Assembly (NCBI GenBank): GCA_963831005.1
Contig: CAWHOW010000016.1
Location: forward strand, 71,934-135,933
From: an uncultured Bacteroidota bacterium
Lineage (GTDB): Bacteria; Bacteroidota; Bacteroidia; Bacteroidales; CG2-30-32-10
DNA length: 64,000 bases
Reading direction: 5' to 3'
Part shown: positions 53-61,604 of the stretch, piece after piece
Layout: each line of letters begins with the position of its first letter
Numbering within the stretch: position 1 is the stretch's first letter
Notes under the pieces: generated by a model
Database searches by the model: none
Seen by the model: only the letters and a program-made list of their open reading frames with translations
Told to the model about the DNA's origin: nothing
Position numbers and translations under genes: made by a program

Positions 53-79
53 TATTTTTGTCCTATTACTTTAATAGGA
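53..79 (+). promoter_or_regulatory. -7 promoter box TATTTTTG (53-60) immediately followed by palindrome TCCTAT-N7-ATAGGA (61-79); probable autoregulatory Rrf2 operator
   Basis: Matches Bacteroidota TAnnTTTG consensus; perfect 6-7-6 inverted repeat 28 bp before the Rrf2 start; related sites at 4907, 10691, 61578. Confidence 0.7.
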
Positions 80-107
80 TAGATAGGATTAACATAAATT
101 ATATTCA

Positions 108-944
108 GTGAAATTTAGTACAAAAACAAGGTATGGTATCAGGGCAATGCTTGAAATTGCATTGCATACCGAAGAAGGCGGAGTTTTCCAAAAAGATATT
201 GCCATTAACCAGGATATATCGATCAAATATCTTGATTATATAATCCATGCTTTGAAAGCAGAAGGATTAATTGCAAATGCCGGAGGGAAAAAAAGCGGAT
301 ATGTGCTTGCAAGAGACGCTTCAGAAATAACCATGTATGATATTCACAATGCTTTTGAATCGGGTATATGCATTGTTGACTGCCTTTCCAGTGACCTTAG
401 CTGCAAAAGAGATAAGAAGTGTGCTGTACGGAAGTTCTGGGTCGGGCTCAATGGCCTTATTATTGATTATTTAAACAATACTACATTGGAAGATTTAGTT
501 AACCAGAATTTTATTAATTATAAAAAAATCATTATCATGAAAAAGACCATTCTACTTGTGGATGATGACAAGGATCTCGTCCGCTCCATCCAGGTAATTC
601 TGGAAAACCAGAATTATACTGTTCTGACAGCCCACAACAAAGCTGAAGGAATGACGAAACTTAAAGAAGGAAAGCCTGATTTATTGGTTCTGGATGTAAT
701 GATGGATACCAATCTTGATGGTTACAACATGCTGCATGAAATAAAGAAAGAGCAGGAATTTAAATCTCTGCCCGTTATCCTGCTCACAGGCATGCTCGAT
801 GAACTGGGCGTAAACCTTGTAGCCGGTGTGGAAGATGAAGAATTATTTCCATTTGTCAGGTTCCAGGACAAACCTGTAGATCCTTTGCAATTATTGGAAA
901 TAATTAAGGAAATGCTGCAGGTTAAAACTGTTGAGGCTAAATAA
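108..944 (+). CDS. Rrf2-family (IscR/CymR-like, 3-Cys) regulator read in frame with a CheY-like receiver domain (receiver likely starts at ATG 537)
   Basis: STKTRYGIRAMLEIA, GGKKSGYVLAR and C-x6-C-x5-C; then ILLVDDD, PDLLVLDVMM, LLTG, DKP receiver motifs. Confidence 0.9.
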   Translation: MKFSTKTRYGIRAMLEIALHTEEGGVFQKDIAINQDISIKYLDYIIHALKAEGLIANAGGKKSGYVLARDASEITMYDIHNAFESGICIVDCLSSDLSCKRDKKCAVRKFWVGLNGLIIDYLNNTTLEDLVNQNFINYKKIIIMKKTILLVDDDKDLVRSIQVILENQNYTVLTAHNKAEGMTKLKEGKPDLLVLDVMMDTNLDGYNMLHEIKKEQEFKSLPVILLTGMLDELGVNLVAGVEDEELFPFVRFQDKPVDPLQLLEIIKEMLQVKTVEAK

Positions 945-1012
945 CTTCAACAGGTAGTATAAAATACAGGGAGGCAAATTAGTTTAATGTTATAGAATAT
1001 TTTGCTCATTTA

Positions 1013-2341
1013 ATGGACGAAAGGCTTCTTCCAAAGCATTTTGGTTTCGCAAAATGGTTGATCAGACTGCGATGGATAGCTATTTTACTTCTTGTTTTCT
1101 CAACATATTTTGTTGTTAATGTATTAAAAATTTCCATCCAGGAAACTCCTGTTTATATTCTATCTTCCATCCTTCTTTTACTCAATTGCATCTATTTACT
1201 CTTAGTAAAATATATTGCAAAAAAAGATACACTGATAGTTATTTCAGCCATCAGGAAAATTCTGCATTTTCAAATTTCAGCCGATCTTGTTATTCTTACA
1301 ATCATTCTTCACTTTTCAGGAGGAATTGAAAATCCTTTTATCATTTATTATATCTTTCACATGATAATTGTCAGTTCAGTGCTTACTCCTATTGAAAGCT
1401 ATATTCAAACTTCATTTGCTTTAATGCTGGTTGCTGCGCTTGCTTTTCTTGAATGTTTTGCAGTAATTCCTCACTTTCCCCTAACAGGATTCATTTCGCA
1501 GGGTTTCTTTCAAAACAAAATTTACATAGCAGGAACAGGATTCGTATTTGTCACTACATCTTATATAGTAGTTGGAATGACAAATTCCATTGTTGCCAAA
1601 TCGCGAAAAAATGAAGACGCATATCTGAAAGCCAACCTGGAACTGGAACAAAAAGACATAGTTAAAAATGAATATGTGCTTAGGGTAACGCATGATATTA
1701 AAGGTCATTTGGGCGCCATACTAAGCTGCATAAAAGTTCTTAAAACAAATATTTTTGGCGGTTTAAATGAAAAACAGGAAGAATTTGTTGGCAGGGCTTA
1801 CGAAAGAACCGATATACTTACCAGCTTTGTAAAGGATCTGCTTAACCTGACCAAGAAGCGACTAGAGAATAATAATAATGAACAGGAAGAATTTTCGGTA
1901 AAGGATTTAATAAATAAGATCGTTTCTGATGCAAAACTAAATGCTGAAGAAAAAGCTATAACTCTTGAAGTCTCTATTGATAACAGTATTGACAAACTAA
2001 AAGGAAATCCCTTTGCTATTGCCGAACTCTTTTCAAATATACTGTTAAATGCCATCAAATACACTCCTGAAAATGGCCAGGTAAAACTTATAGTTAAGAA
2101 TCGTCCCGACCTTATTATTGCAGAGATTTCGGATACAGGTATTGGAATTCCGGAAGAAGAAATTCCTAAAGTGTTTGATGAATTCTTCAGGGCAAGCAAT
2201 GTTAAAAATGATACTAAAGCAGGCTCTGGTTTAGGATTGGCTATTGCCAAACAAATTGTTACCAGCCACAATGGAAGGATATGGGTTGAAAGCAAGCTGG
2301 GTACAGGCACTAAATTTACATTTACTTTATCAAAAGCCTAA
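1013..2341 (+). CDS. Membrane sensor histidine kinase (HisKA + HATPase)
   Basis: Multiple N-terminal TM helices, H-box THDIKGHL, NAIKYT, DTGIGI, GSGLGLAI. Confidence 0.93.
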   Translation: MDERLLPKHFGFAKWLIRLRWIAILLLVFSTYFVVNVLKISIQETPVYILSSILLLLNCIYLLLVKYIAKKDTLIVISAIRKILHFQISADLVILTIILHFSGGIENPFIIYYIFHMIIVSSVLTPIESYIQTSFALMLVAALAFLECFAVIPHFPLTGFISQGFFQNKIYIAGTGFVFVTTSYIVVGMTNSIVAKSRKNEDAYLKANLELEQKDIVKNEYVLRVTHDIKGHLGAILSCIKVLKTNIFGGLNEKQEEFVGRAYERTDILTSFVKDLLNLTKKRLENNNNEQEEFSVKDLINKIVSDAKLNAEEKAITLEVSIDNSIDKLKGNPFAIAELFSNILLNAIKYTPENGQVKLIVKNRPDLIIAEISDTGIGIPEEEIPKVFDEFFRASNVKNDTKAGSGLGLAIAKQIVTSHNGRIWVESKLGTGTKFTFTLSKA

Positions 2342-2406
2342 GCAATAGCAAATAAAACTTCTTCTTTAGCTGTTTTCTTCTTATTTTTTTATACTCTCTT
2401 CATATT

Positions 2407-2640
2407 ATGATTATCATTCTTTTCAGGATGCTTCACATTCCTACGAAATGATTATCATTCTTTTCGGGATGTTTCACATTCCTACGGAATGATTATTATT
2501 CTTGTCAATATGTTTCACATTCTTTCTTGGATGATTACCATTCTTGTCAGGATGCTTCACATTCCCGCGGAATGATTATCATTCCTGCCAGATGATTATT
2601 TTCCTTAAAAGGCCGATTATCATTCTTATTAGGATGTATG
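2407..2640. repeat. Degenerate tandem repeat, unit about 41 bp (two ~21-bp halves), about 5 copies
   Basis: ATGATTATCATTCTTTTCAGGATGCTTCACATTCCTACGAA recurring with substitutions. Confidence 0.85.
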
Positions 2641-2756
2641 TTTTCCTGTTTAGAAAGACAGTCTTTTTAAATGAAATTTAGAGAATTTGGAAGAAGTAGT
2701 CGGTCTGGCTTGACTACAGAAAGGTAAATTAAAATATACAGCTACACTTTCGACAA

Positions 2757-2899
2757 TAGAATTCTTCGGAAAATCATTTTTCTCATCATGGCGAGGAGTC
2801 AGCCACTGCGGACGACGAGGCAATCTTATTCATATAGTTAGATTGCTTCTCCGCCAGCCGGCGGATCGCAATGACGCACCTATTTCCCAAAGAACTCTA
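2757..2899. mobile_element. MITE/REP-like palindromic element
   Basis: GC-rich core TCATGGCGAG...GGCAATCT / AGATTGC...CGCAATGAC flanked by imperfect terminal inverted repeats TAGAATTCTTCGGAAAAT / ATTTCCCAAAGAACTCTA. Confidence 0.6.
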
Positions 2900-2901
2900 A
2901 T

Positions 2902-2934
2902 AAAAAAAACCCGGAAAAATTCTCCGGGCTTTTT
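2902..2934 (-). terminator. Intrinsic terminator (A/T tails on both sides)
   Basis: AAAAAAAA-CCCGGA..TCCGGG-CTTTTT just past the 2956 stop. Confidence 0.8.
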
Positions 2935-2955
2935 AACTACTAACCACTAAACTAT

Positions 2956-3810
2956 TTATTCAACAACTATTTTTTCCAAAGTAGACTCATTATTTATTTT
3001 TAATCTTACAAAATAAATACCTTTTGCATAAGATGAAATATTGAATGTTTTATTCACTTCACCATTCATTCCGTTTTCTGAAATAAGGTCAGCAACTTTT
3101 CTACCGGTAATATCAATTATATCCATATTAACTGAAGAAATCCCTTTCAATGAGAATTTAACATTTAAGTTATCAGAAGAAGGATTAGGGAAAACCGAAA
3201 GATTATAATCCTTAGCAACTGCTTCAGCAATACCAACAGTAATATCAGAGCTAGGGGCATCGAAGTAGTGTAACAATAATCTCCAGATGTACGTACCATC
3301 ATTAATCAGCAGCTAATCCTGATGCATAAAATGTAACAGTGCCACTACCGGTAGCAGGAGCAGTCCATTTAAATGAAAAAGCATGTGAATCCAATGCGAT
3401 GTTTCCTGTTCCAGTTTGTACAACATACGACAAGCCATTGCAGATGATGCCTTAATGATTTTCAACATCAGGTGAAGAGTTAAAAGGGATAGCGTTCCAC
3501 CATTAGTAGTTGCATTTGTCAAAGCTTCGAAATCAAAACCAAATAGTGAATCTCGAGGAGTGCTATGAGAAACAGTAACAGTTACAGTGTATACAGAGTC
3601 GGGGTAATAGCCACCTGCAAGTGTAGGTACTGATGTAATGGCAATTGAGCCAGATCCTGAATTTACAGCAAAATCAGCGTGGCATTGTGTGCAGTCACCT
3701 TCAGAGTATGCACCGGTTTTACCAGCTTCTCCACCTGGCAAAAGAACTTTAAACGACATAGCACAAACCGCAACTATGGCAACTAAAATTAATGTAATTT
3801 TCTTTTTCAT
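2956..3810 (-). CDS. Second copy of the CxxCH + Reeler-like + T9SS CTD protein, broken by several single-base indels (ORFs 3313-3810 and 2956-3276)
   Basis: Near-identical to 3859-4701 (GDCTQCH, FGFDFEAL, PNPSSDNLNVKFSL...GIYFVRL); missing middle (HAFSFKWTAPATGSGTVTFY) is readable in shifted frames at 3260-3480. Confidence 0.8.
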
Positions 3811-3858: not shown

Positions 3859-4701
3859 TTATTCAACAACTATCTTCTGAATAGTTATTTCATTATTAAT
3901 ACTTAATCTTACAAAGTAAATGCCTTTTTCATAAGATGAAATATTGAAAGTTTTATTTACTTCTCCATTCATTCCGTTTTCTGAAATAAGTTCAGCAACT
4001 TTTCTGCCGTTCATATCTATCATATCAATATTAACGGAAGAAATTCCATTTAATGAGAATTTCACATTTAAATTGTCAGATGAAGGATTAGGATAAACAG
4101 AGAAATTAATTTCCTTAGCAAGTACTTCCGAAATCCCAGCAGTATTTTGCATTACAGCCATAGAAGTAGTGTACACCCAGTCACCTGTAGTATTACCATC
4201 ATCATTAGCAGCTAAACCTGAAGTATAGAATGTTACAGTTCCAGTTCCGGTAGCCGGAGCAGTCCAGTAAAAGGAGAATGCATGTGAATTTTTGGTATTG
4301 TTACCTGTTCCTGTATGAACAACATCTGTAATAGCAGTAGATCCGTCAGCTTTCGTTTTCACATCAGTCGAAGGCGTTAACAAAGAAAGTGTTCCTCCGT
4401 TAGTAGTTGCATTTAATAATGCTTCGAAATCAAAACCGAAAAGCGAATCACCTGTCTGAGTCACAGTAACAGTTACTGTATATTTAGTACCAGGTACATA
4501 TCCGCCTGTAAGTGCAGGTACGGCTGTAATAGCAACTGAACCGGTTCCTGTATTTACTGCCCAATCGGAATGGCATTGGGTGCAATCGCCTTCAGAGTAT
4601 GCACCTGTTTTACCAGCTTCACCAGCGGGTATAAAAACTTTAAACGACATAGCGCAAACAGCAACTATGGCAACTAATGCTAATGTAATTTCCTTTTTCA
4701 T
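3859..4701 (-). CDS. T9SS-sorted protein with N-terminal CxxCH heme-c motif and Reeler-like (choice-of-anchor V type) domain
   Basis: Signal peptide, GDCTQCH, FSFYWTAPATGTGTVTFY, C-terminal VYPNPSSD...GIYFVRL...KIVVE. Confidence 0.85.
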   Translation of the reverse strand: MKKEITLALVAIVAVCAMSFKVFIPAGEAGKTGAYSEGDCTQCHSDWAVNTGTGSVAITAVPALTGGYVPGTKYTVTVTVTQTGDSLFGFDFEALLNATTNGGTLSLLTPSTDVKTKADGSTAITDVVHTGTGNNTKNSHAFSFYWTAPATGTGTVTFYTSGLAANDDGNTTGDWVYTTSMAVMQNTAGISEVLAKEINFSVYPNPSSDNLNVKFSLNGISSVNIDMIDMNGRKVAELISENGMNGEVNKTFNISSYEKGIYFVRLSINNEITIQKIVVE

Positions 4702-4885: not shown

Positions 4886-4925
4886 CAAAGATACTAATAA
4901 TATTTATACTATCGTATATATAGGA
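4886..4925 (-). promoter_or_regulatory. -7 box TATCTTTG (4886-4893, minus) with palindromic operator TACTAT-N7-ATAGGA (4907-4925)
   Basis: Operator is the exact reverse complement of 10691-10709. Confidence 0.7.
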
Positions 4926-5163
4926 AATATATTCATTTATTTTAACTAAAATTAACAATAGTTTCTTGTTATGAATTTTATAATACAAAACAATACATGT
5001 TCTAATATATTAGATTGCAATTATTTAAATGCTTATTTGCACTTCGAAAACATACTGTTTTATAAAAATTAAACTATTTATCCTAGTTAATAACTTTTTT
5101 CCGTTTTGATGTATTTTTGATAATTTATCGTATTTTTGCATTGAAATCTCTAAATACTAAAAG

Positions 5164-5949
5164 ATGCCCAAACAAGTTCAAAGATTACTTATCGCCTTTG
5201 TGATTTTTGTTGGCTTATTTTTGCTCGCCAGGCATTTTCTGGTGCCTGCAACATTTGGCGATCTTGGTCACTACCGAGCTGACGCCATTAAAGATGCCAA
5301 AGATCATGAAGCAAAATACCTTGATACCATAGCCTGCAGAAGCTGCCATAAAGGAATAGATTCAGTAAAATCAGGAGGTGTCCATCAGGGAATTAACTGC
5401 CAAACCTGTCATGGAGCAGGTTATCTGCATGCTAAAGATCCTAAAAAGAATCCATTGACCAAACCTACCGAGAGAGAGTTCTGTGGTAAATGCCATAATA
5501 TAAATGCTGCAAGACCTTCGTTTATGAAACAGGTTGACATAAGCAAGCATAATACCAAAAGCAAATGCATTGTTTGTCATAACCCTCATAGTCCGGGATT
5601 TAAAGCAGAACTTCCTAAATCATCCACTTCGGCAGATAATTCAGCAAAAAGCAATGGAACTCAAATTGATGATGCAACATGCGGCAAATGCCATAATACT
5701 GAATACACTAAAAAACAATCAGGCGTTCATAAGCATAATAATTGTGTAATGTGCCATGGTGCAGGTGATAAGCATATTACAAATCCTACAGCAAATGTTT
5801 TGGTAAAGCCTAAAGGAAGAGCATTCTGCGCTCAATCCCACGGTACAGGTTCAACTACAAGCGGCATTAAGCAAATTGATCTGAAAGTGCATAATCCTGA
5901 CGGTGACTGCACCGATTGCCATAACCCTCATAGTCCAATGGATTTTTAA
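5164..5949 (+). CDS. Membrane-anchored multiheme cytochrome c (7 CxxCH + 1 degenerate CxxSH), CbcS/NrfB-like position
   Basis: N-terminal TM; CRSCH, CQTCH, CGKCH, CIVCH, CGKCH, CVMCH, CAQSH, CTDCH in two 4-heme repeats. Confidence 0.9.
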   Translation: MPKQVQRLLIAFVIFVGLFLLARHFLVPATFGDLGHYRADAIKDAKDHEAKYLDTIACRSCHKGIDSVKSGGVHQGINCQTCHGAGYLHAKDPKKNPLTKPTEREFCGKCHNINAARPSFMKQVDISKHNTKSKCIVCHNPHSPGFKAELPKSSTSADNSAKSNGTQIDDATCGKCHNTEYTKKQSGVHKHNNCVMCHGAGDKHITNPTANVLVKPKGRAFCAQSHGTGSTTSGIKQIDLKVHNPDGDCTDCHNPHSPMDF

Positions 5950-5976
5950 TACCTTATTAATTTATCTTCTAAAGAA

Positions 5977-6807
5977 ATGGAAACTGAAAATAATAATAAG
6001 AAAAAAAATACAAGAAGGGATTTTCTGCTTGCTTCAACAGCAATAGCAGGAGGCTTATTATCCATGTCCCTTCTTAAACCCCTGAAAGCTTTTTCAGGCG
6101 GTTCAGATGTGAAATCATCTCCTGCTGATACTGCCAAAGGTAATGCAAAGAATGCTGCTGCCGGAACAGCTCCAAACGATCATTGGTACGGATTTTATTT
6201 CGATATAGAAAAATGTATCGGTTGTGGAAGCTGTGCCAAAGCATGCAAAACGGAAAATGATGTTCCATTAGAACCATTCTTTTACAGGACATGGGTGGAA
6301 CAATATACCGTTAAAAATGACCAAACCGTTTTGATCGAATCGCCTAACGGTGGAATTGACGGCTTTAAACAAAGCGTTCCCAAGGAGGATATTTTCAAGG
6401 CTTTTATAGTACCAAAGGCTTGTAATCATTGCGCCAAATCGCCATGCGAACAGGTATGCCCTGTAGGAGCATCCTATCATACACCCGACGGTGTTGTACT
6501 GGTTGATCAGAGTTATTGCATAGGTTGCGGATATTGCGTGCAGGCCTGTCCTTACGGATGCCGTTACATGCATCCCGAAAAGCATGTGGTTGACAAATGC
6601 ACTTTATGTTATCATAGAATTTCTAAAGGAATAGAACCTGCATGTGTGGAAGTATGCCCTACCGGAGCAAGAATGTATGGTGACCTGCATGATAAAAAAG
6701 GACCTCTTGTTGCATTTCTTAAAGACCATAATTGTCATGTGCTTAAGCCCCAGCTTAACACCAAGCCAAAACTATTTTATAACGGATTAAGCGAGGAGGT
6801 AAAGTAA
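5977..6807 (+). CDS. Tat-exported 4x[4Fe-4S] protein, NrfC/PsrB family
   Basis: TRRDFL Tat motif; CIGCGSCAKAC, CNHCAKSPCEQVCP, CIGCGYCVQACP, KCTLC...PACVEVCP. Confidence 0.93.
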   Translation: METENNNKKKNTRRDFLLASTAIAGGLLSMSLLKPLKAFSGGSDVKSSPADTAKGNAKNAAAGTAPNDHWYGFYFDIEKCIGCGSCAKACKTENDVPLEPFFYRTWVEQYTVKNDQTVLIESPNGGIDGFKQSVPKEDIFKAFIVPKACNHCAKSPCEQVCPVGASYHTPDGVVLVDQSYCIGCGYCVQACPYGCRYMHPEKHVVDKCTLCYHRISKGIEPACVEVCPTGARMYGDLHDKKGPLVAFLKDHNCHVLKPQLNTKPKLFYNGLSEEVK

Positions 6808-6808
6808 T

Positions 6809-7996
6809 ATGGAAAATTTTAACAACTTATACGAAGCGCTAAAACATGTAAGCGGGTTTATTTACCCTAACGAAGTAAAACTCCAGTGGTCTGTACTCAT
6901 CGTGCTCTATCCTTATATAACAGGGCTTGTTGCCGGTGCATTCATCCTTGCATCATTAAACAGAGTATTTAATGTAAAGGCCCTCCGCCCTACTTACGAA
7001 TTATCGTTACTTGCTGCATTCTCATTTCTTCTGGTAGCCACCATGCCATTAATAGCGCATCTTGGGCAACCTCAGCGTTTCTATGAGATCATGATGACAC
7101 CGCATTTAACTTCTGCTATGGCTATCTTCGGCTTTGTTTACTTATGGTATCTGATGGCTGTACTCTTACTAGAGATTTATTTTGATTACAGGCAAGACCT
7201 TTACCTGTGGTCGAACCAAAAGAAAGGATTATTAAGATGGATATACAGGTTCCTTACATTGGGCGTTTACGACGTTTCACCAAAAGCATTGAAATGGGAT
7301 GAAAAGCTTGGTTATATTATTACAGTGGTTGGTATTCCTTCCGCTTTCCTCCTGCATGGTTATGTAGGTTTCATCTTCGGCTCTGTTAAAGCTAATCCTT
7401 GGTGGTCGTCGGTAATGATGCCTGTGATATTCCTGTTCTCCGCTATGGTTTCAGGCATTGCACTTGTATTGTTCCTGTATTTTGCAGTGAATATCATCCG
7501 CAAACAGAAACTTGATCTGGCTTGCTTGGATGCTATGGGCAAGTATCTTTTCTACATTCTTATTTTAGATTTCACGCTCGAGTCGCTCGACCAGATACAC
7601 CGCGTTTATGTGGCTGAAGAATCATTTGATATTATTTCGATATTAATGACAAAATTATTCTGGACACTTTCCATCATGCAGGTATTGCTGGGCACACTGA
7701 TACCATTGGTCACTCTTTTTATCTTCCAGCTTAAGAAGCCAAAGGAAGTGATAAGAAAAGTAAGTTATTTTATTATTAGCCTTCTGATTTTGGTTGGCAT
7801 ATTCTTTATGCGCTGGAACGTGGTTATCGGCGGACAGTTATTCTCTAAATCATTTGCGGGATTCACTACCTATAAAGGCGAATTCTTCGGCAGCGAAGGT
7901 TTCTTTGAGGCATTGGTTCTGATGATACTACCATTTGGCATTTTTGCTTTTATGCTGTGGTTCTTACCTCCATGGAAGAAGCAACACCAGTTGTAA
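6809..7996 (+). CDS. NrfD/PsrC-family quinol-interacting membrane subunit
   Basis: YPYITGLVAGAF, HLGQPQR, LHGYVGFIFG...NPWW, MRWNVVIGGQ; about 10 TM; follows NrfC-like gene. Confidence 0.92.
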   Translation: MENFNNLYEALKHVSGFIYPNEVKLQWSVLIVLYPYITGLVAGAFILASLNRVFNVKALRPTYELSLLAAFSFLLVATMPLIAHLGQPQRFYEIMMTPHLTSAMAIFGFVYLWYLMAVLLLEIYFDYRQDLYLWSNQKKGLLRWIYRFLTLGVYDVSPKALKWDEKLGYIITVVGIPSAFLLHGYVGFIFGSVKANPWWSSVMMPVIFLFSAMVSGIALVLFLYFAVNIIRKQKLDLACLDAMGKYLFYILILDFTLESLDQIHRVYVAEESFDIISILMTKLFWTLSIMQVLLGTLIPLVTLFIFQLKKPKEVIRKVSYFIISLLILVGIFFMRWNVVIGGQLFSKSFAGFTTYKGEFFGSEGFFEALVLMILPFGIFAFMLWFLPPWKKQHQL

Positions 7997-8299: not shown

Positions 8300-9942
8300 A
8301 TGCTTCAGGACGAGAACAAAACTGACCTTGAAAACATCTTATCAAAGTTAAATTCTCTCGAAAGCCGGATGATCCGCATCGAAGAAGAACTTGGTATTGA
8401 TTCAAGTATTTCCTCGTCCGCTGCATCTGAAAAGGTCGGCATTGATGGCATAAATCAAGACTCCGCAAAAGAAGAGAATGGTTTTGAATCGCGCATCGGC
8501 GGTTACGGTCTTGCACTCCTTGGCAATATTGTTTTTCTTTTCGGACTGATATTCTTTTCCAATTACATCCAGGGTTCAGGCTATCCTGCATTATCCGGCA
8601 TCTTCGGATATGCCTGCGTGGCAGGCATATTTATCCTTGCCCATTTTGCTAAAAAGCGTATCCACTATCTTTCCGTTATGTTCGAAATGGTTGGGTTCAT
8701 CATGGTATATTATGCTACTATGAGGCTGCATTTCTTTTCCGCTCAGCCGCTCATAAGCGACATTTATTTTTCCAGTTTGCTGCTTCTTATAGTGCTGGTT
8801 TCACTGTTTTATTACACTGTCCGCAAGCGTTCGGAACTGTTTGCTGTCACTGTATCAGTACTTATAATAGTGTCGGGAGTGATAAGCGATTCCTCTGACA
8901 TGATGCTTGACTCGGCTGTGCTTGCTTCAGCAGCCTCGTGTATTTCTTTTTCAAATATAACTGGAAAAGCTCTTTGCTGTCGTCCATCTTTATGGTGTAC
9001 CTCGCTTTTGTAATATGGTTCATGAAAAACCAGCAGGCAATAGCAGCAAAGACAGATGTTATCCATAACAACTACAGCTATATATATCTTTTTGCCTGCG
9101 CCGTTATTTTTTCTCTTACCTGCCTTGTCCGCGCAAGGGAGAAGCTTACAACTGTTTACCTGATGACGGCCGCATTGTTTAACGGCATCATGTTCTCCTG
9201 CTTGCTGCTGCTATATACACCTGCCTTATACGCCGATATTTTCACCACGCTCTTTATTGTCATTTCCATATTCTGCATGATATATTCCATCCTGTTGAAA
9301 TCCTATTCTGCATGGAAATTTGCAAAAGCCTTTTATGCCATGTATGGTTTTGTGGCTATCAGCATTTCCGTTTACGGCATCTTCAAGTTTCCTTATACTT
9401 ACCTGTTGCTTACCCTGCAAAGCCTGTACGTGATAAGCATTGCCCTCTGGTTTCGCTCCAAGCTGATGATATCTATGAACACTTTTCTTTTCCTGGCTTT
9501 GCTTATAGTGTATTTTATCAGCGGCGACATAAGGGATTCCATAGATTTCTCTTTTGCCGCCACTGCCTTCATTTCGGCTGCGGTTATTGACTGGCGCAAA
9601 AAATATCTTGAAATAGAAGCCGACCTGATGCGCAATGTTTACCTGGCTACGGCTTTTTGCTCCACCCTGTTTGCATTATACAAATCCCTTCCGGCACAAT
9701 TCATCACCTTGTCGTGGACAGTACTGGCGATAGGATATTTTGTTTACAGCATCATTTTTAAAAACGTGCGCTATCGCTGGATGGCTATTATCACCATGAT
9801 TGCTGCCGCTTTTTATTTATTCCTTTTCGACCTTTCACGCATTTCACTTGTGTACAGGATAATTGCATTCCTTTTCCTTGCCATCATTTCTATCAGCATC
9901 TCGCTTTATTACAACAAGCCAAAGAAAGACGTTGAAGAATAA
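8300..9942 (+). CDS. Polytopic membrane protein (DUF2339-like), frameshifted near 8935 (ORFs 8300-9013 + 8938-9942)
   Basis: Coiled N-terminus, FESRIGGYGLALLG, many TM helices, C-terminal YLFLFDLSRISLVYRIIAFL; the two ORFs overlap and continue one hydrophobic pattern. Confidence 0.7.
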
Positions 9943-10029
9943 TTCCAATTTCTGAATTTAGAAGCCAAAAGTGAAATTAAGTATACCCTTTTAACACAAA
10001 GGAAATAAGTGCAATCCGTGAAAACGATA

Positions 10030-10485
10030 TTAATATTTATAACAATATAATGGTGTAACTGTAAAACCAGAAGGCGCGGTACTTTTGCCAACAGGTATTA
10101 CATTTATAGTTTCACTGTAAGCAATTTCATTTGAATTGTTGTAGCACAATAGTCTATAATACAGATTTGCCACTATCGGCGATTCATCAGTAAAGTAATA
10201 AGCAATATCATTTCTTGAAGCAGTACCATAACATTTAATGTAACCTATCACTTCAAATTGCGCTGCATCTAGTGATCGCTCTACTGCCAACGTTCTGGTT
10301 TCAGTATTGTTGTTCACGGTGATATGCAAATAAACTTTACCATTCAGATATTTGCTGTCAAATGCCTTAATATGGCTAAGTTTTTGTTCGTTCGAATTTA
10401 CAGTACTCAACATTAATGACTGTGAATTAAGCTGTAAAGAAGCATTCAACAATAGAAGTATGAATGTATATATTGTTAGTCTCAT
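10030..10485 (-). CDS. Secreted hypothetical protein, single Ig-like module of the type that usually precedes T9SS CTDs
   Basis: Signal peptide; AVERSLDAAQFEVIG, YYFTDESP, LYYRL, YSETI. Confidence 0.7.
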   Translation of the reverse strand: MRLTIYTFILLLLNASLQLNSQSLMLSTVNSNEQKLSHIKAFDSKYLNGKVYLHITVNNNTETRTLAVERSLDAAQFEVIGYIKCYGTASRNDIAYYFTDESPIVANLYYRLLCYNNSNEIAYSETINVIPVGKSTAPSGFTVTPLYCYKY

Positions 10486-10506
10486 GAATTTTATTATTTG
10501 TTAATG

Positions 10507-10574
10507 CAAAATTACTCGCCATTGCAGAATAGATTGATTAAGATAAGATTAAATACTAATTAATATTAAGTTAA
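10507..10574 (-). promoter_or_regulatory. -7 box TAATTTTG (10507-10514) with four (A/G)TTAA repeats at 11-bp period (10537, 10548, 10559, 10570)
   Basis: Direct reading; same geometry as sites at 4791 and 54207. Confidence 0.6.
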
Positions 10575-10690
10575 TACAGCAAACTGCTTTTTAGTATAGT
10601 TATCCAACAGGATAAAAGAATGTTTTAAGAAATTTATCTTATTAAGCATATTGTCTTCTTAAAAATTTGTTATTTTTTTCATAATATATT

Positions 10691-10709
10691 TCCTATATAT
10701 ACGATAGTA
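10691..10709 (+). promoter_or_regulatory. Palindromic operator TCCTAT-N7-ATAGTA upstream of the imcH-like operon
   Basis: Identical to reverse complement of 4907-4925, with extended flanking identity. Confidence 0.7.
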
Positions 10710-12420: not shown

Positions 12421-12488
12421 TAGTGGAAGAATTTATTAGAAACAATAATTCGTTTGCATAATAAGAGGATCATTTTAAAACATTAAAT

Positions 12489-56028: not shown

Positions 56029-56868
56029 TTAATATTCCGTAGGAAGTTCTTTAAGCTGCTTATATGTAAAAACGGGTCCGTCCTTGCAAACAAAAATTTT
56101 ACCCACATTACATCTGCCGCATTTCCCGAAGCCGCACTTCATGCGATTTTCGAGAGTGGTATAAATATTTCCGTCTTCAAAACCCAATTTATCCAGCACA
56201 GCAAAAGAATATTTTATCATAATAGGTGGGCCGCAAACAATGGCAATTGTATTTTCAGCGGAGGGTTCAATATCCTGTAGTATCTTAGGCACAAAACCAA
56301 CTTTACCTTTCCATGCGGGAGATTCACGCCCCGGGTCAATGGTTGTTATCAGATCTATATCCGGCCTTTCATCCCAATTTCTCAATTCATCTTTATAAAC
56401 TAAATCATCAGGAGTTTTAGCTCCATACAGGATAGTTATTTTTTTGTAATCATCTCTGAAATCAAGGCAGTTTTGTATAACGCTTCTCATAGGGGGCAAC
56501 GCAATACCGCCGGCAACAAACAACAGGTTCTTATCTTTCCATTCATGTATAGGAAAGTTATTACCATAAGGGCCGCGAAAGCCAATTATATCGCCTTCGG
56601 CTTTCATGGCTAAAGCTGTAGTAACTTTGCCCGAATATCGGAAGGTGCATTCAATATGATCGGTAGTGGTAGGGGATGAGGCTATGCAAAAAGTTGATTC
56701 ACCTTCGCCAAAGGCAGAGTATTCGGCAAACTGACCTGTTTTAAAAATGAATTTATTTCCCTGTTCTTCATCAATGAATTTTAAATGAAATGTTTTGATG
56801 AAAGGCGCTTCTTCGATGATCTTATCAACACGCATGAGGGAAGGAAGGTATATGTCGTTTTCGCTCAT
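56029..56868 (-). CDS. FlxA/AsrB/HydG-like FAD/NAD(P)-binding [2Fe-2S] subunit
   Basis: GQF, RGPYGN, AGGIALPP, CGPPIM, MKCGFGKCGRC...VCKDGPVF. Confidence 0.92.
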   Translation of the reverse strand: MSENDIYLPSLMRVDKIIEEAPFIKTFHLKFIDEEQGNKFIFKTGQFAEYSAFGEGESTFCIASSPTTTDHIECTFRYSGKVTTALAMKAEGDIIGFRGPYGNNFPIHEWKDKNLLFVAGGIALPPMRSVIQNCLDFRDDYKKITILYGAKTPDDLVYKDELRNWDERPDIDLITTIDPGRESPAWKGKVGFVPKILQDIEPSAENTIAIVCGPPIMIKYSFAVLDKLGFEDGNIYTTLENRMKCGFGKCGRCNVGKIFVCKDGPVFTYKQLKELPTEY

Positions 56869-56890
56869 TTGTTTATTTTTTTAAATTACA

Positions 56891-56978
56891 TGCCTGCCTG
56901 TCTTCGAGACGTCCCGCGTCATCTTGAGGAGAGAACCGTCTCGAAAGAAAGCGGGACTCCTCTGACTGACGGCAGGCA
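56891..56978. repeat. GC-rich palindromic (REP/MITE-like) insertion inside the operon
   Basis: Ends TGCCTGCCTGTC / GACGGCAGGCA; inner TTCGAGACG/CGTCTCGAA and GTCCCGC/GCGGGAC arms. Confidence 0.65.
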
Positions 56979-57015
56979 GTGTTGTTGTGAAATTTATTGT
57001 TCATAGCATTTCATC

Positions 57016-58035
57016 TCAGATATTTTTTGCCAGGTTAATAAGATGTTCTTTAATATTCATGTCAACAGGACAGGCCCTTGTACATCTTCCGCAACCCGTG
57101 CAACCATATAACTGGAATTGTTCTGGCATATAATAAAATTTATGAAGTATGCGCTGCCTCCATCTTTTGCTTTGCACATCACGGGGATTATGCCCTGAAG
57201 AATGAAGCGTGAACAATGAAAACCCGCAGGAATCCCAATTGCGTTTTCGCTGCACATCATGTCCGTCTGATGAATCCTGTATATCAAAACATGCACAGGT
57301 AGGACAAGCATAAGCACAACTCCCGCATCCTATACATCTCATAGATTGTTCGAGCCATATAGGGCTATCAAAAGAATCTTTTATTTTTCCGCCAAAATCA
57401 TTTAATTCAAAAGCAACAGGAACCTCTGCAAGATAACTATCCTTATTGATGTCAGGTGCATTATCAAAATAACTTTGGTATGAAGAGACAATCTTTTGTC
57501 CTTTTTCTGTCATTACTTCAACCAGGTAATTTCCATTCTCAACTTCAGTTAACAACATATCGCTTCCATCAGTATTGCCGGGGTTGATTCCCATGCTGGT
57601 ACAAAAACATTTTGAATCACATTTCTTACAACTAACACTGATGAGAGTGGTTTTTGCAAAACGTTCGGCAAACAGCTGGTCAGTGATTCCTGATGTGAAC
57701 ATTTTATTCAGGATATTTATTCCAGTGGCATCACATGGCCGCGAACCATAAACAATTGTTTCGCTGATCAGGTTTTTATCTCTTGATTTTAATTCAACAT
57801 TGTCTTTCGACATTTTAATTTCCATCAGTTTCTCAGCCTTTGGAAAGAGTATGGATTTAGCTGACTGGGAAGTATTGATATGATCATTACTGATTTCCTG
57901 AAAGGATGAAATGAAGTCGAAATTTACAAGATTGTTTTTCTTTACAGGGGCATAAACTTTCCTCCCGTCTTCTAAACATTTTCCAATGAGAGAAGATAAT
58001 TTTTCCTTTTCTATGAAATACTTTTGAATATCCAT
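57016..58035 (-). CDS. FlxB/AsrA-like 4Fe-4S subunit
   Basis: GSRPCD, CKKCDSKCFC, CIGCGSCAYACPTCACF, WDSC, CTGCGRCTRACP. Confidence 0.9.
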   Translation of the reverse strand: MDIQKYFIEKEKLSSLIGKCLEDGRKVYAPVKKNNLVNFDFISSFQEISNDHINTSQSAKSILFPKAEKLMEIKMSKDNVELKSRDKNLISETIVYGSRPCDATGINILNKMFTSGITDQLFAERFAKTTLISVSCKKCDSKCFCTSMGINPGNTDGSDMLLTEVENGNYLVEVMTEKGQKIVSSYQSYFDNAPDINKDSYLAEVPVAFELNDFGGKIKDSFDSPIWLEQSMRCIGCGSCAYACPTCACFDIQDSSDGHDVQRKRNWDSCGFSLFTLHSSGHNPRDVQSKRWRQRILHKFYYMPEQFQLYGCTGCGRCTRACPVDMNIKEHLINLAKNI

Positions 58036-58038
58036 GTT

Positions 58039-58890
58039 TTATTGGATAAAGTTTTCTTTATCGTCGGGTTTAAATGTTGACATGACCGAACCCAGCTTTG
58101 CATCAGTTCCGGCAGTTACACCAAAGTTATCTTTTACAGTTTGCGACATTTTGAATGTTAACAGGTGTACCGGAATTTTCATACTGCAGGCGCGTCCACA
58201 TTCACCGCATTCAATACATCTTCCGGCAAGATGAATAGCCCTCATAAAATGCCATTCGAAATTGCCCTGGGTTGTCGATTCGGGAGTAATGATCTGCGGC
58301 TGATTATATTCAACCTGGCATTTGCTGCAATAACATAATGGGCATGCTGAACGACAGGCATAACATTTATTGCATCTGGCAAACTGCTCTGTCCAGAAAT
58401 TCCAGCGTTCTTCTGCTGTCATGCCATCAAGCTTATCAAGTAATTCCTTATCTTCCGCAGAAATGCCTGAATTATTTGTATGTACATATTCCTGCAGATC
58501 GCTGAACCCTGTAAATTCTTTAATTGAGCCATCTGCAGTAATTCCTAATATCAATATTTTTTCTTCTTTCAGATGATTTTCAGAAGCTAACTGCAGAATA
58601 GTGCGCATAATAGGTAGTGTAGCAATAATACCTATTCGGGTGAACTTCAGAATTTCTTGTTTCAATAAATAAACAGCAAGATTTTGAAGGCATCTTTCAT
58701 CATAAATAAGTTCAGATGTATTATCAGGAGTTGTAATGAAAATGGCACGCACGGTATTATCCGTGCCTTCTCCATACCCTATGATAATATCCACAGCCTT
58801 GTTCTGCAAAAGATCTTTTGCTTTGTTTTGCAGCCTGGTTCTGTTTATATCTTCGGCTAATTTTATTTCAACATCGCTTATTTCCGTCAT
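58039..58890 (-). CDS. FlxC-like (FrhB/FdhB-related) 4Fe-4S subunit
   Basis: RCNKCYACRSACPLCYCSKC, HLAGRCIECGECGRAC. Confidence 0.88.
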   Translation of the reverse strand: MTEISDVEIKLAEDINRTRLQNKAKDLLQNKAVDIIIGYGEGTDNTVRAIFITTPDNTSELIYDERCLQNLAVYLLKQEILKFTRIGIIATLPIMRTILQLASENHLKEEKILILGITADGSIKEFTGFSDLQEYVHTNNSGISAEDKELLDKLDGMTAEERWNFWTEQFARCNKCYACRSACPLCYCSKCQVEYNQPQIITPESTTQGNFEWHFMRAIHLAGRCIECGECGRACSMKIPVHLLTFKMSQTVKDNFGVTAGTDAKLGSVMSTFKPDDKENFIQ

Positions 58891-59333
58891 ACAATAGCTT
58901 CAATAAAATTGGTTGTTGATAAATTACGAAATGAGTTATAAGCTCCGAGTTTTTTAATTTCCTCAGTAAAATTATTTACTATTTCAGCCCATCGTGCACC
59001 TTCTGCAGCAGATACCCATGAGAACATAACCCTGTTCACATCAATTCCTGTGAATTTAGCAAGGTCTCTGAATATGATCCATCTTCTTCTTGCATGAAAA
59101 TTTCCGCTGGTATAATGACAATCATTAGGGTGACATCCGGAAACGATAATTCCATCCGCTCCAAGAGTAAATGCTTTAATAAGCATCATGAAGTCTATTC
59201 TTCCTGTGCAGGGGGCGCGAATTATCCTCACATTGGATGCATATTTTATCCTGCTTGTGCCAGCAAGGTCAGCACCGGCATAGGTACACCATGTGCAGAC
59301 AAAAGCAACTATCTTAGGTTTATATTCGCTCAT
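58887..59333 (-). CDS. mvhD: MvhD/FlxD [2Fe-2S] subunit
   Basis: FVCTWCTYAGADLAG, PCTGRID, GCHPNDCHY, WVSAAEG. Confidence 0.93.
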   Translation of the reverse strand: MSEYKPKIVAFVCTWCTYAGADLAGTSRIKYASNVRIIRAPCTGRIDFMMLIKAFTLGADGIIVSGCHPNDCHYTSGNFHARRRWIIFRDLAKFTGIDVNRVMFSWVSAAEGARWAEIVNNFTEEIKKLGAYNSFRNLSTTNFIEAIV

Positions 59334-59337
59334 ACAT

Positions 59338-61056
59338 TTACTCCCTTAATAAAAGTTCTGTAAGTTCCGACAACATCTGTTTGTTCGAGCAACCCTGAAG
59401 GTCTATAGCTTTTGGGCGACACAAAGAGACACAGGTTCCGCAACCCTGACACAGCACATCGTTTACAACCGATACGTTTTTTTTATCATCAAAGCCAATG
59501 GCGTCGTAAGGACAAACACTGATACACATTTGACATCCGTTACATATTGTACTGTTCACATAGGCTGTAGTTAATGCAATATTCACAGTGCCTCTTGAAA
59601 TCAATGACAACACCCTTGCTGATGCCGCTCTTGCCTGCGAAACACAATCTGCCATATCTTTCGGGCTTGCACAACTTCCGGCGATAAAAACTCCGTTTGT
59701 GGTTGTTGCAACAGGATCAAGCTTTGGATGCTTTTCAATAAAAAAATGATTATCATCTATACTAATTCCTGCTATTTGTCCGGTTTCACGGGCATTGTCC
59801 TGTCCTTCCATTGCTGTCATTAGTATTACCATGTCAGCAGGAATTCTCACAGATTCACCTGAAAGCAATTCGTCAACATCCACATACATATCACAACAAT
59901 CACCTTTATCAGCCTTTTTAATTTCAGGCATTCCGTTCTTCTGGTCGAACATCATAAACATTATTCTTCTTCGTGAAGAAGCAGTGTACATTTCTTCACA
60001 ACCTTTCGACATGCTGCGCATATCGGAATATAATTCATAGATGTGCGAATCAGGAAGAGCAGATCTTAACTGGTTAGCAAATTTTAATGCTACAGTGCAG
60101 CAAACCCTCGAACAGTATTTGTGATAATTACTGTTCCTGCTTCCCACGCAATGTACGATAGCAATATTTTGCGGAACTTTGCCATTCTTTTTAATAATAT
60201 TACCTGACTTCAGCATCGTTTCGAATTCTGATGAAGTGATAACATCTGGAAATTTACCATAGCCGTAATTTTCTATCACAGATGGATCATAAGCTTTCAG
60301 TCCGGTTGCAATAATAATATTTCCGAAACTTATCATTTTCTCTATTCCTTTATAGGAAATCAAAGTTTCGAAATTTCCAATGTAGCCTGATATTTCTTTT
60401 ATTTCAGTATTAAGAAAAACGTCAATATTTTTATGATTGATCACCCTGCTTATCAGAGGATAAATTAATTGTGAAACACTTGTAAAATAAGGGAATGTAA
60501 GGTCAATATTAGAAGCATGGCCACCTAACTTGTCAGTGTTCTCTACAAGGAATATCTTTTTCCCTGCATCTGCAATTTCCAATGCAGCAGTGATGCCTGT
60601 AATACCTCCTCCAATAATCATCGTAGCCGGGTGAATATTAACAGAACGTTCATCAAGCGGTACATGGTAGTTTATCCTGTTTATGGCGGCTGCAACAAGA
60701 GCCCTCGATTTAGTAGTAGCTTCAGTTTTATCAGTATGCACCCACGACACATGTTCACGGATATTGGCCATTTGAAGCATATACGGATTCAAACCCGCCT
60801 TAACTAAAGCTTTCCTGAATGTGAGTTCATGAATGCGCGGAGAGCAGGCTGACACAACTATCCTGTTAAGCCTGTTTTCTTTAATATCTTTTATGATTAA
60901 ATCTTGTCCGGGATCTGAACACATATATTTATATGTCTTTGAAATGACGACATTGGGAGCCTTCATCATTTCTGCAGCAACAGCTTCCACATCAACCATC
61001 TTGGCGATGTTATTACCGCACCAGCAAACATATACACCTATCCTCGGTTTTTCCAT
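59338..61056 (-). CDS. hdrA: HdrA-like flavoprotein (short form)
   Basis: IGVYVCWCG, MCSDPGQ, ACSPRIHE, ANIREHVSWVH, IGGGITG, CVGSR..YCSRVCC, two C-terminal 4Fe-4S motifs. Confidence 0.92.
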   Translation of the reverse strand: MEKPRIGVYVCWCGNNIAKMVDVEAVAAEMMKAPNVVISKTYKYMCSDPGQDLIIKDIKENRLNRIVVSACSPRIHELTFRKALVKAGLNPYMLQMANIREHVSWVHTDKTEATTKSRALVAAAINRINYHVPLDERSVNIHPATMIIGGGITGITAALEIADAGKKIFLVENTDKLGGHASNIDLTFPYFTSVSQLIYPLISRVINHKNIDVFLNTEIKEISGYIGNFETLISYKGIEKMISFGNIIIATGLKAYDPSVIENYGYGKFPDVITSSEFETMLKSGNIIKKNGKVPQNIAIVHCVGSRNSNYHKYCSRVCCTVALKFANQLRSALPDSHIYELYSDMRSMSKGCEEMYTASSRRRIMFMMFDQKNGMPEIKKADKGDCCDMYVDVDELLSGESVRIPADMVILMTAMEGQDNARETGQIAGISIDDNHFFIEKHPKLDPVATTTNGVFIAGSCASPKDMADCVSQARAASARVLSLISRGTVNIALTTAYVNSTICNGCQMCISVCPYDAIGFDDKKNVSVVNDVLCQGCGTCVSLCRPKAIDLQGCSNKQMLSELTELLLRE

Positions 61057-61082
61057 CAGATTTGCTATAATGGGATTATTGA

Positions 61083-61529
61083 TTAATATCCATAACCTGA
61101 TCCCGATATATAATTTTGCAGATCATCGATGGTCGTTTTTTGTGATTGGATAATTCTGTTTACAATATCTCCGATTGAAATAAGTCCGCATAGCTTGTCA
61201 TCCTTGAACACCGGAAGATGCCTGAAACGGTTTTCTGTCATTATTTCCATGCAATCCATAATGGATGTTTCAGGATTTACAACTTTCAAATTGGTACTCA
61301 TATATTCTTTTACTTTTGATTCTTTAGAAAAGTGCCCTTTAAGTATCAGTTTACGGGCATAATCTCTCTCCGTAAAAATGCCAACTAATTTTTGATTGTC
61401 ATCAACTACCAACACAGCACCGATATGCTTTTCTGCAAGCATTACAAGAGCATCATAAACTGTTGCTTCGTTATTTATTGTCCAGCATTGGTTTCCTTTG
61501 GTTTCTAATATTCTTTTTACAGTTCCCAT
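61083..61529 (-). CDS. CBS-domain pair protein
   Basis: IGAVLVV, GIFTERDYARK, FRHLPV, GLISIGDIV. Confidence 0.93.
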   Translation of the reverse strand: MGTVKRILETKGNQCWTINNEATVYDALVMLAEKHIGAVLVVDDNQKLVGIFTERDYARKLILKGHFSKESKVKEYMSTNLKVVNPETSIMDCMEIMTENRFRHLPVFKDDKLCGLISIGDIVNRIIQSQKTTIDDLQNYISGSGYGY

Positions 61530-61577
61530 GAGAGATTTTTTTAATTAATAATTTGGTGATTTATTTAAAACTACATA

Positions 61578-61604
61578 TCCTATAATAAATATAGTACAAA
61601 AATA
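61578..61604 (-). promoter_or_regulatory. -7 box TATTTTTG (61597-61604) directly followed by operator TACTAT-N7-ATAGGA (61578-61596)
   Basis: Same promoter/operator juxtaposition as at 53-79. Confidence 0.7.

Follow-up and report, generated by a model that had tools for sequence, protein, structure and literature searches.

A conserved palindromic operator and its probable link to an Rrf2-receiver fusion protein in an uncultured Bacteroidales bacterium

Four sites in one 64,000-nucleotide (nt) stretch of DNA from an uncultured Bacteroidota bacterium (order Bacteroidales, lineage CG2-30-32-10; assembly GCA_963831005.1, contig CAWHOW010000016.1, positions 71,934 to 135,933), referred to as the window in the following, carry the same short palindrome. 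They precede or adjoin the gene of an Rrf2-type regulator, the gene of a haem protein sorted by the type IX secretion system (T9SS), an ImcH/CbcL-like cytochrome operon and a CBS-hdrA-flx operon. This raises the question whether the palindrome is a genuine operator, which protein reads it, and whether the adjoining genes form one regulon, as a first-pass annotation had proposed. Soil and peat Bacteroidales are uncultured; to our knowledge, few regulons have been described in this order, and the regulation of extracellular electron transfer and of flavin-based bifurcating complexes is almost unknown outside Geobacter and Shewanella. As argued below, the palindrome is probably the DNA operator of one Bacteroidales clade of Rrf2 proteins, serving a regulon with two promoter layouts (classes I and II) and possibly with redox as well as quinone inputs.

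The pattern TMCTATNNNNNNNATAGKA, i.e., TMCTAT-N7-ATAGKA, has four exact matches in the window, at 61-79 (site 1), 4907-4925 (site 2), 10691-10709 (site 3) and 61578-61596 (site 4). This number compares with 0.02 expected, and none of 100 dinucleotide shuffles reached four, so that the motif is in excess over shuffled sequence. All four sites are intergenic on the map of open reading frames (ORFs); both the number of sites and their intergenic position had been claimed before and are borne out. As the pattern was written from these same four sites, controls independent of them were used. In the whole assembly (5.15 Mb, 37% G+C; intergenic status according to a simple ORF map), the strict pattern with the 7-base spacer occurs 12 times, in 10 cases between genes, whereas spacers of 0-6 and 8-15 bases gave 1-9 matches with 0-2 of them intergenic. 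Allowing up to one mismatch, 34 intergenic sites were counted for N7 vs. 8-17 for spacers of 3-11. The excess thus depends on the 7-base spacer and is limited to intergenic DNA. Repeat copies account for several one-mismatch matches of the genome, which were left out of consideration, namely CACTATAGAAGGAATAGGA (three copies), the pair C37:23281 / C34:67636 and TGCTACTTTAGTTATAGGA (three copies); here and below, C## stands for contigs of this genome, G### for compared genomes (G000 being this one) and L### for loci or contigs.

The sites differ in their position relative to the promoter. The -7 promoter element of Bacteroidetes has the consensus TAnnTTTG, exact copies of which were found at 53-60 (+), 61597-61604 (-) and 4886-4893 (-). 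The first, TATTTTTG, is the -7 box of the Rrf2 gene, starts at -8 relative to the operator and adjoins site 1; its complement CAAAAATA at 61597-61604 adjoins site 4, so that the CBS-hdrA-flx operon on the minus strand has the same box in the same gapless layout, just as the first-pass annotation had described for positions 53 and 61604. Its more general statement that the sites lie next to a -7 box holds exactly for sites 1 and 4, but the box of site 2 (TATCTTTG, minus strand, 4886-4893) is 13 nt off, downstream of the operator, and site 3 has a degenerate box only. Accordingly, two classes can be told apart. In class I, no gap separates the -7 box from the operator that follows it, which applies to site 1, site 4, C26:285732, C33:18150 and nearly all autoregulatory sites in foreign genomes. 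An exact box adjoins 3 of the 10 strict intergenic sites (P(≥3) = 2.4e-6 at a background frequency of 0.00136 boxes per position and strand in intergenic DNA). In class II, the operator lies 13 nt upstream of the box, over the -33 region, as seen for site 2, site 3 with its degenerate box, and C33:14660. Site 2 reads TCCTATATATACGATAGTA on the minus strand, and site 3 on the plus strand is its exact reverse complement. Both are embedded in a 42-nt module (4892-4933 and 10683-10724) which forms an inverted repeat with 93% complementarity and 5.7 kb between its arms, and of which a third copy is located at C33:14660. A protein bound directly after a Bacteroidetes -7 box would cover the transcription start. 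The position of class I operators over the expected start therefore suggests that these sites are repressed by a bound Rrf2 dimer.

Further evidence for an operator comes from the DNA around related Rrf2 genes. Stand-alone Rrf2 proteins with 55-78% identity to the N-terminal domain of the regulator in the window are common in relatives, although a site is found within 300 nt upstream of only 2 of the 44 closest genes. The motif is rare there because the Rrf2 gene usually stands last in an operon with genes for a YceI protein, an outer-membrane protein (OMP) and an unknown protein; the sites lie approximately 2.5 kb upstream of the Rrf2 gene, at the operon promoter. Scanning of the whole loci (428 kb) yielded 11 perfect sites with the 7-base spacer and 29 with up to one mismatch, compared with 0-1 and 0-14 for other spacers. 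An upstream test over a span of 3.2 kb was confined to those 28 of 50 relative-encoding loci that reach 50% identity and include 2.8 kb or more of upstream DNA. A site with up to one mismatch is present upstream in 19 of these 28 clade loci, all from other Bacteroidales, vs. 2 of 24 downstream, and other spacers gave an upstream site in 1-4 of the same 28 loci; relatives below 50% identity carry a site in 2 of 12 cases. The operator is real and evolutionarily conserved, and its recurrence at the promoters of Rrf2 operons elsewhere strongly backs the earlier claim of Rrf2 autoregulation.

The details of the layout are conserved as well. When aligned, 23 foreign operators read TAnnTTTG followed by TCCTAT-N7-ATAGGA-tnn-ATAGKA, the combination of -7 box and operator being present in most of them. 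This consensus layout is that of site 1, a class I site on the plus strand, whose perfect palindrome TCCTAT-N7-ATAGGA directly 3' of the -7 box is followed after 3 nt by a third half-site, ATAGGA, at 83-88 (+). In G013, the arrangement of three half-sites is mirrored and located 45 nt before the Rrf2 gene; both G013 and G032 have sites directly before Rrf2 genes. Site 4, TACTATATTTATTATAGGA on the minus strand and 48 nt upstream of the CBS gene, has GTAGTT as third half-site at 61569-61574 (-), a variant likewise found in the foreign operators L050 and L063. A survey of 250 further genomes of the order detected the Rrf2 clade (E ≤ 1e-30) in 32 of them. The strict signature of TTG plus operator, a subset picked post hoc after a looser pattern had proved uninformative, occurs in 9 of the 32 clade-bearing genomes and in 5 of the 218 others (odds ratio 16.7); in 6 of the former 9, it shares the strand of the Rrf2 gene and precedes it by up to 3 kb.

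Some features of these foreign loci deserve mention in their own right. Among the units under operator control in relatives, the most frequent is the operon of a YceI-like protein, an OMP-barrel-like protein of approximately 410-460 amino acids (aa) without assigned family and an unknown protein of about 200 aa (L048, L041, L057, L043, L086, L102). YceI proteins bind polyisoprenoids or quinones. A limited literature search found no work joining Rrf2 and YceI, and the OMP gene of this operon was not found in the genome investigated here with the L086 protein as query. In L087 (8001-9633), three tandem Rrf2 paralogues of 157, 151, and 160 aa follow one class I operator.

A weight matrix built from the foreign operators only was used to scan both strands of this genome, and it recovered the window sites independently of the pattern written from them. 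Site 1 ranks first genome-wide (22.7), site 4 sixth (19.7) and sites 2 and 3 rank 12th and 13th (18.6), all four within the range of the training sites (16.0-26.6). Among the top 13 matches, 11 are intergenic, and four fall into the window, which represents 1.24% of the genome (P = 1.6e-5). Further candidate sites were found upstream of T9SS-sorted proteins (C4:58797 and C26:285732), before the genes of a small T9SS protein and a 5-haem cytochrome (C33:14660), 75 nt upstream of a c554-like 4-haem cytochrome (C33:18150), 44 nt upstream of a nuoA-like gene (C22:64493) and between an H+-pyrophosphatase gene and a beta-propeller gene (C23:63997). Besides, two paralogous secreted proteins with collagen-like GPTG repeats, encoded at L003 (G000:C33) 5340-6974 and L001 (G000:C4) 1478-3187, are each preceded by an operator-like site and a small T9SS-sorted protein; one of them has five CxxCH motifs and the other none.

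Palindromes may also function at the level of RNA. If the element acted as a hairpin in the 5' leader, i.e., as an attenuator or stability element, instead of a DNA operator, the folding of site 1 (-11.1 kcal/mol, z = -3.4) and the circumstance that a class I element would be transcribed could be understood. However, sites 2, 3 and 4 fold no better than shuffled sequences (z -0.16 to +0.48), the left half of foreign operators varies (TCCTAC, TCCTAG, TACTAT) without compensating changes in the right half, the class II copies precede the -7 box, and the window contains no match to an Rfam family, which renders this explanation scarcely credible. It is also highly improbable that another factor, e.g., of the Crp/Fnr family, binds the palindrome and that the adjacency to Rrf2 genes reflects co-regulation and not autoregulation. 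Although Crp-family genes are located near Rrf2/REC loci in G032 and L057, the Crp/Fnr box is built as 5-4-5, unlike the 6-7-6 dyad found here, Rrf2 is the sole DNA-binding protein encoded in the YceI-OMP-Y-Rrf2 operons, and the presence of the operator tracks that of the Rrf2 clade. Moreover, the CC-N13-GG spacing fits the IscR motif: in AxxxCCxxAxxxxxxxTAxGGxxxT, as given in the available part of the source (PMC4169559), CC and GG are 13 nt apart as they are in the present dyad, which thereby resembles an IscR type 2 site. We therefore infer that the operator is bound by proteins of the Rrf2 clade.

The regulator behind site 1 proved to be an unusual member of this family. Its gene (108-944, plus strand, GTG start) encodes in a single frame a protein of 278 residues, with an Rrf2 domain at residues 3-132 (PF02082, 7e-31, 107.5 bits vs. 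a cut-off of 30; TIGR00738, 111.5 vs. 73.3) containing Cys92, Cys99 and Cys105, and a receiver (REC) domain at residues 148-231 (PF00072, 3e-17, 63.1 bits vs. 30.2). The earlier label of an Rrf2 gene is correct with regard to this domain, but the gene is not a plain Rrf2 gene; it encodes an Rrf2-receiver fusion and is followed by the gene of a RegB-like kinase. The receiver pocket, consisting of VDDD, LVLDVMM, LLTG and QDKP with acidic pocket, acceptor Asp, Thr and Lys, is kept in six to seven of the seven aligned receivers. Fused homologues are P0002 (82% identity) and P0003 (48%), with the linker of P0003 being longer and its acceptor position occupied by Ser. Two contigs from RNA libraries of one study, which indicate presence in those libraries and not transcription, span the fusion junction with 10-11 substitutions and no gap; of the differences near the junction, the three that were checked (482, 500, 530) leave the protein encoded by the fused frame unchanged. 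The AlphaFold2 model reaches a mean predicted local distance difference test (pLDDT) score of 87.5 and features a helix (127-143) that links the dimerisation region of the Rrf2 domain to the receiver. That the fusion results from a slip of the assembly, for which the A7 run at 522-528 had been considered, is contradicted by the fused homologues, the junction-spanning contigs and the model. The DNA runs X1 and X2 leave out positions 457-719, the junction included. No match spanning both the Rrf2 and the REC domain was found in the genomes of 40 relatives, and a limited literature search (supplements aside) found no paper describing such a regulon or Rrf2 as output domain of a receiver.

Whether this protein senses iron-sulfur (Fe-S) status, as claimed before, has to be judged from its cysteines. 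Escherichia coli IscR is the best match among solved structures (4hf0/4hf1, E = 4e-18), and Cys92, Cys99 and Cys105 align with the mutated IscR cluster positions C92, C98 and C104. Among 50 clade sequences, C92 is kept in at least 90%, while C99 and C105 are invariant. Fe-S sensing is accordingly plausible. IscR is autoregulated, in which the regulator described here appears to resemble it in addition to the three aligned cysteines. Nevertheless, the protein is no IscR: it remains below the cut-offs of TIGR02010 (102 vs. 207.55) and NF008110 (86.5 vs. 275), has Arg at the position of IscR His107, uses another half-site and carries a C-terminal receiver. According to the Pfam annotation of the window, no isc or suf genes are located nearby, the neighbours being the kinase and cytochrome genes. 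Likewise, the scores for CymR (83.8 vs. 195) and RirA (40.5 vs. 193) stay below the equivalog cut-offs. NsrR is not among the best 25 matches of the window protein, and the L086 protein and a paralogue on C33 reach 36.9-39.7 vs. 182 for it. In sum, no cut-off of an NCBIfam equivalog (IscR, CymR, NsrR, RirA, SUF regulator) is reached, and only the superfamily model TIGR00738 passes.

Comparable systems exist within the Rrf2 family. The founding member, Rrf2 of Desulfovibrio vulgaris, is reportedly tied to the transmembrane multihaem electron-transport operon hmc; it stems from a different phylum, and we know of no receiver fusion for it. In the accessible sections of one article it is listed only as regulating "sulfate reduction (Rrf2)" (PMC11672702). 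The same sections describe the Rrf2-family proteins NsrR and RsrR, which are Fe-S redox and NO sensors, and SifR as dimeric winged-helix repressors in which Fe-S cluster or cysteine chemistry controls the release of the operator (PMC11672702). The redox theme of NsrR and RsrR and the quinone theme of the sensor SifR fit the target genes found here, whereas the targets themselves are different. Moreover, the protein in the window has Arg at position 8, in contrast to the ligand Asp8 given there for NsrR (PMC11672702). Another uncharacterized Fe-S Rrf2 protein is encoded in Lachnospiraceae beside Bcd/Etf "BOOR" genes, i.e., next to electron-transfer flavoprotein genes, and has been proposed to derepress them under redox stress (preprint PMC13404960). 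It belongs to another phylum and clade and lacks a receiver domain, and the available part of the preprint describes no operator.

Within the genome itself, a second reader of the operator has to be considered. A stand-alone Rrf2 paralogue encoded at C33:8480-8944 might recognise the operator mainly or in addition, with the fused protein controlling its own promoter only or competing with the paralogue. At 47% identity, this paralogue has retained the SxKYLD recognition helix and the GGKKSGY wing as well as the Cys triad, and a site with two mismatches lies 61 nt upstream of its gene; all of this speaks against a regulon that depends on the fused protein alone. It is furthermore located near the two C33 sites preceding cytochrome genes, 5.7 kb from C33:14660 and beside a cytochrome c maturation gene, and the three clade paralogues behind a single operator in L087 are in line with this reading. 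In the recognition-helix and wing segments, the three remaining Rrf2 genes of the genome are different. On the other hand, the best site of the genome precedes the fused gene, and it is the closest relatives of the fused protein's Rrf2 domain (55-78% identity) which carry the conserved operator. A leading role of the paralogue is consequently conceivable but doubtful, and it would be compatible with binding by the fused protein, which is favored in the following.

The sensor histidine kinase gene at 1013-2341 (+) follows the regulator gene and suggests a second input. RegB-like sensors have been described for Proteobacteria. The encoded protein combines a HATPase_c domain with a six-helix membrane domain similar to RegB/PrrB/ActS, and its 210 N-terminal residues match only the NCBIfam models NF033792 (ActS/PrrB/RegB, 4.3e-10) and NF045988 (RegB, 1.8e-7), with scores below the equivalog cut-offs (39 bits vs. 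350 and 29.9 vs. 570, respectively). Between helices 3 and 4, as read by eye, residues 103-109 form the motif GGIENPF and thereby match GGxxNPF. Orthologues have GGIENPF (L086), GGVENPF (G032) or GGIENPI (G010/G017). In RegB, the GGXXNPF loop with N110 and F112 is the ubiquinone site by which the kinase reads the quinone pool, and the accessible text of this source further names conserved Arg31 and Gln38 in helix 1 and the redox-active Cys265 (PMC3000548). Compared by eye with this description only, the kinase shows RW-x-A at residues 20-23, Leu where Gln38 of RegB would fall, and a Cys approximately 11 residues past the H-box vs. approximately 40 for Cys265. By analogy with RegB, the motif suggests that the receiver, and hence Rrf2, answers to the redox state of the quinone pool; given the fusion and the kinase, this state may be the signal as much as Fe-S status. 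The Rrf2-receiver fusion together with a RegB-type kinase bearing a quinone motif goes beyond the first-pass annotation and is the most interesting outcome of the analysis.

The arrangement resembles RegB/RegA of Proteobacteria (PrrBA, ActSR, RoxSR) in the membrane domain of the kinase, the GGxxNPF motif and the respiratory or redox function which we infer for the targets. Unlike RegA, the partner receiver lacks a Fis-type DNA-binding domain and occurs as bare REC (L086, G032) or fused to Rrf2 (this genome). Tentatively, a two-component system with an Fe-S Rrf2 protein as output can be envisaged, in which a RegB-like kinase sensing the menaquinone pool would phosphorylate a receiver which in this genome and P0002 is fused to the Rrf2 dimer and in L086 and G032 would dock to it. 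A single operator could then integrate quinone redox state and Fe-S status and balance Hdr/Flx or Etf bifurcation, haem supply and quinol-oxidising cytochromes of extracellular electron transfer, as a Bacteroidales counterpart of RegB/RegA made from different parts. As separate observations, a Bacteroidales-type genome here combines a RegB-type kinase with a receiver that is bare or fused to Rrf2, and a paralogous pair of REC (39% identical) and RegB-like kinase (38%) is encoded at G000 C48:7994-9666, adjoining one copy of a threefold repeated element with the one-mismatch operator-like sequence CACTATAAAAGGGATAGGA.

Regarding the putative targets, the operon behind site 4 may be considered first. 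It extends over 56029-61529 on the minus strand and comprises genes for a CBS-domain protein (61083-61529), an HdrA-like protein (59338-61056), MvhD/FlpD (58887-59333), an unknown protein (58039-58890), a Fer4_22 Fe-S protein (57016-58035) and an NAD/FAD Fe-S protein (56029-56868). In G032, which belongs to another family of the same order, a CBS-etfB-etfA-FeS operon and an Rrf2 gene have a perfect class I site between them. The metagenome contig L086, whose Rrf2 is 78% identical, carries in succession operator, OMP, Rrf2, REC, kinase, a site with two mismatches and CBS-hdrA, and in G010 an flx-like operon directly precedes REC-REC-kinase. Thus, the tie of Rrf2, REC and kinase to CBS-led flavoprotein operons recurs, with the link to a CBS-led operon seen in two other genomes (G032 and L086). 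Of 41 genomes searched for CBS orthologues, only 3 yielded any; a CBS paralogue on C31 of this genome, behind an RNA-polymerase-like gene, has no site. The Rrf2 gene adjoining the G032 site heads hemB-hemL-hemE-hemN-hemH, and a second Rrf2 gene of this genome, with one-mismatch sites, heads hemA-hemC-hemD; these haem operons are found at L032 (G032:C6) 8901-12639 and from 17631 onwards into L033. Further perfect sites of G032 precede a REC-kinase pair and a YceI-OMP operon. The ancestral regulon may accordingly have included tetrapyrrole supply, as the G032 arrangement suggests. Judged by sites and gene order, autoregulation and the putative control of the CBS-hdrA-flx operon are well supported.

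The class II sites would concern electron transfer to the outside. Site 2 lies between the minus-strand gene of a T9SS-sorted one-haem protein (3859-4701; CxxCH, Reeler / choice-of-anchor V, Por_Secre_tail) and a divergent plus-strand operon for a 7-haem cytochrome c, an NrfC-like 4Fe-4S protein and an NrfD-like membrane subunit (5164-7996). The orientation of the promoter module shared with the other copies points to the T9SS gene as the likely target, in agreement with the first-pass annotation, while control of the divergent cytochrome-NrfCD operon is not supported. Downstream of site 3, the ImcH/CbcL-like operon (10921-17741, plus strand) encodes an ImcH-like NapC/NirT cytochrome (10921-12420), a 3-haem cytochrome (12489-12881), a CbcL-like protein with 12 haems and a cytochrome b part (12886-14940) and a second CbcL-like protein whose gene is interrupted by a frameshift (14960-17245 / 17040-17741). 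It is plausible that the T9SS haem protein and imcH/cbcL are controlled from these sites, as a trait specific to this genome. It could be objected that sites 2, 3 and C33:14660 are merely copies of a promoter or repeat module which happens to hold the palindrome, so that only sites 1 and 4 would be regulatory and Rrf2 would have no link to extracellular electron transfer. The high complementarity of the 42-nt repeat, its third copy and the missing canonical -7 box of site 3 are compatible with this view. However, the core of the module is the same pair of half-sites with 7-nt spacing and scores 18.6-19.1, within the range of the foreign training sites; all three copies are located upstream of haem-protein or cytochrome operons, and the Pfam annotation of the window reveals no transposase between the repeat arms. 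A purely passive module is hence considered unlikely.

Several results nevertheless weigh against a regulon as broad as the one proposed, and one of them concerns the imcH genes. Genes of this type are present in 40 of the 250 other genomes, and 29 such loci, 6 of them from genomes with the Rrf2 clade, contain no site scoring at least 14 within 1.5 kb upstream, save a weak match at -1189 in G157. This lack of convincing sites also favors the passive module. The extracellular-electron-transfer arm therefore rests on the three module copies of this genome, and the inclusion of imcH/cbcL in the regulon is either a peculiarity of this genome or spurious. No operator site accompanies the CBS orthologue of G017 either, and G010 and G017 possess REC and kinase without operator or clade match. 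RegB-like kinases occur in 9 other genomes of the 250, only 2 of which contain the Rrf2 clade, i.e., an order-wide association was not detected. As to the operator itself, 9 of the 28 clade loci have no upstream site with up to one mismatch, and in 40 relatives the degenerate pattern, with raw counts of 0-6 per genome, was no more frequent than the reversed-pattern control. The looser combination of -7 box and operator in 251 genomes likewise gave counts no different from the reversed pattern. In addition, the compared genomes are related to one another and hence not independent.

With these reservations, the probable binding of the Rrf2 clade to its operator can be outlined as follows. The full operator, TCCTAT-N7-ATAGGA and usually a third half-site ATAGKA after 3 nt, would be occupied by the Rrf2 protein. 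At class I promoters, the bound dimer would cover the transcription start and repress the Rrf2-REC gene (site 1), making the regulator autoregulated, as well as the CBS-hdrA-flx operon (site 4). By means of the 42-nt module, copies of which precede the gene of the T9SS haem protein (site 2), imcH/cbcL (site 3) and the operon of T9SS protein and 5-haem cytochrome on C33, genes of extracellular electron transfer may have been recruited to the regulon in this genome. Fe-S or redox status and the state of the quinone pool could jointly set the occupancy of the operator, and cytoplasmic NADH/ferredoxin flavoproteins might in this way be balanced against membrane and extracellular electron export. 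The coupling of NADH/ferredoxin flavin chemistry to electron export, as put forward by the first-pass annotation, is supported with regard to its cytoplasmic side, where the tie to CBS-led flavoprotein operons recurs in G032 and L086, but the site before imcH/cbcL is not conserved at the 29 loci. If the scheme is true, two-component signaling would gain a new class of output, and an Fe-S sensor a second input. With a defined operator and candidates for both the regulator and the signal pathway, the question becomes accessible to experiments, and the conserved core of the regulon (YceI-OMP, REC-HK and CBS-flavoprotein operons, haem biosynthesis) offers a foothold for comparative genomics in the order.

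The gene labels assigned earlier to the window are reasonable according to Pfam, NCBIfam and haem counts, and some further features were recorded. The T9SS-sorted one-haem protein has a frameshifted tandem paralogue on the minus strand, consisting of an N-terminal piece (2956-3276) and a C-terminal piece with the sorting domain (3313-3810). The second CbcL-like gene contains 19 CxxCH motifs and a cytochrome b part in two overlapping frames, which points to a pseudogene frameshift or an assembly error near 17050. A T9SS-sorted surface protein of 1932 aa with NHL repeats, DUF11, five GEVED domains and long internal repeats is encoded at 18399-24197 on the minus strand. Finally, a restriction-modification pair at 29125-31445 consists of a DNA methylase with HEAT repeats and a CfrBI-type restriction endonuclease.

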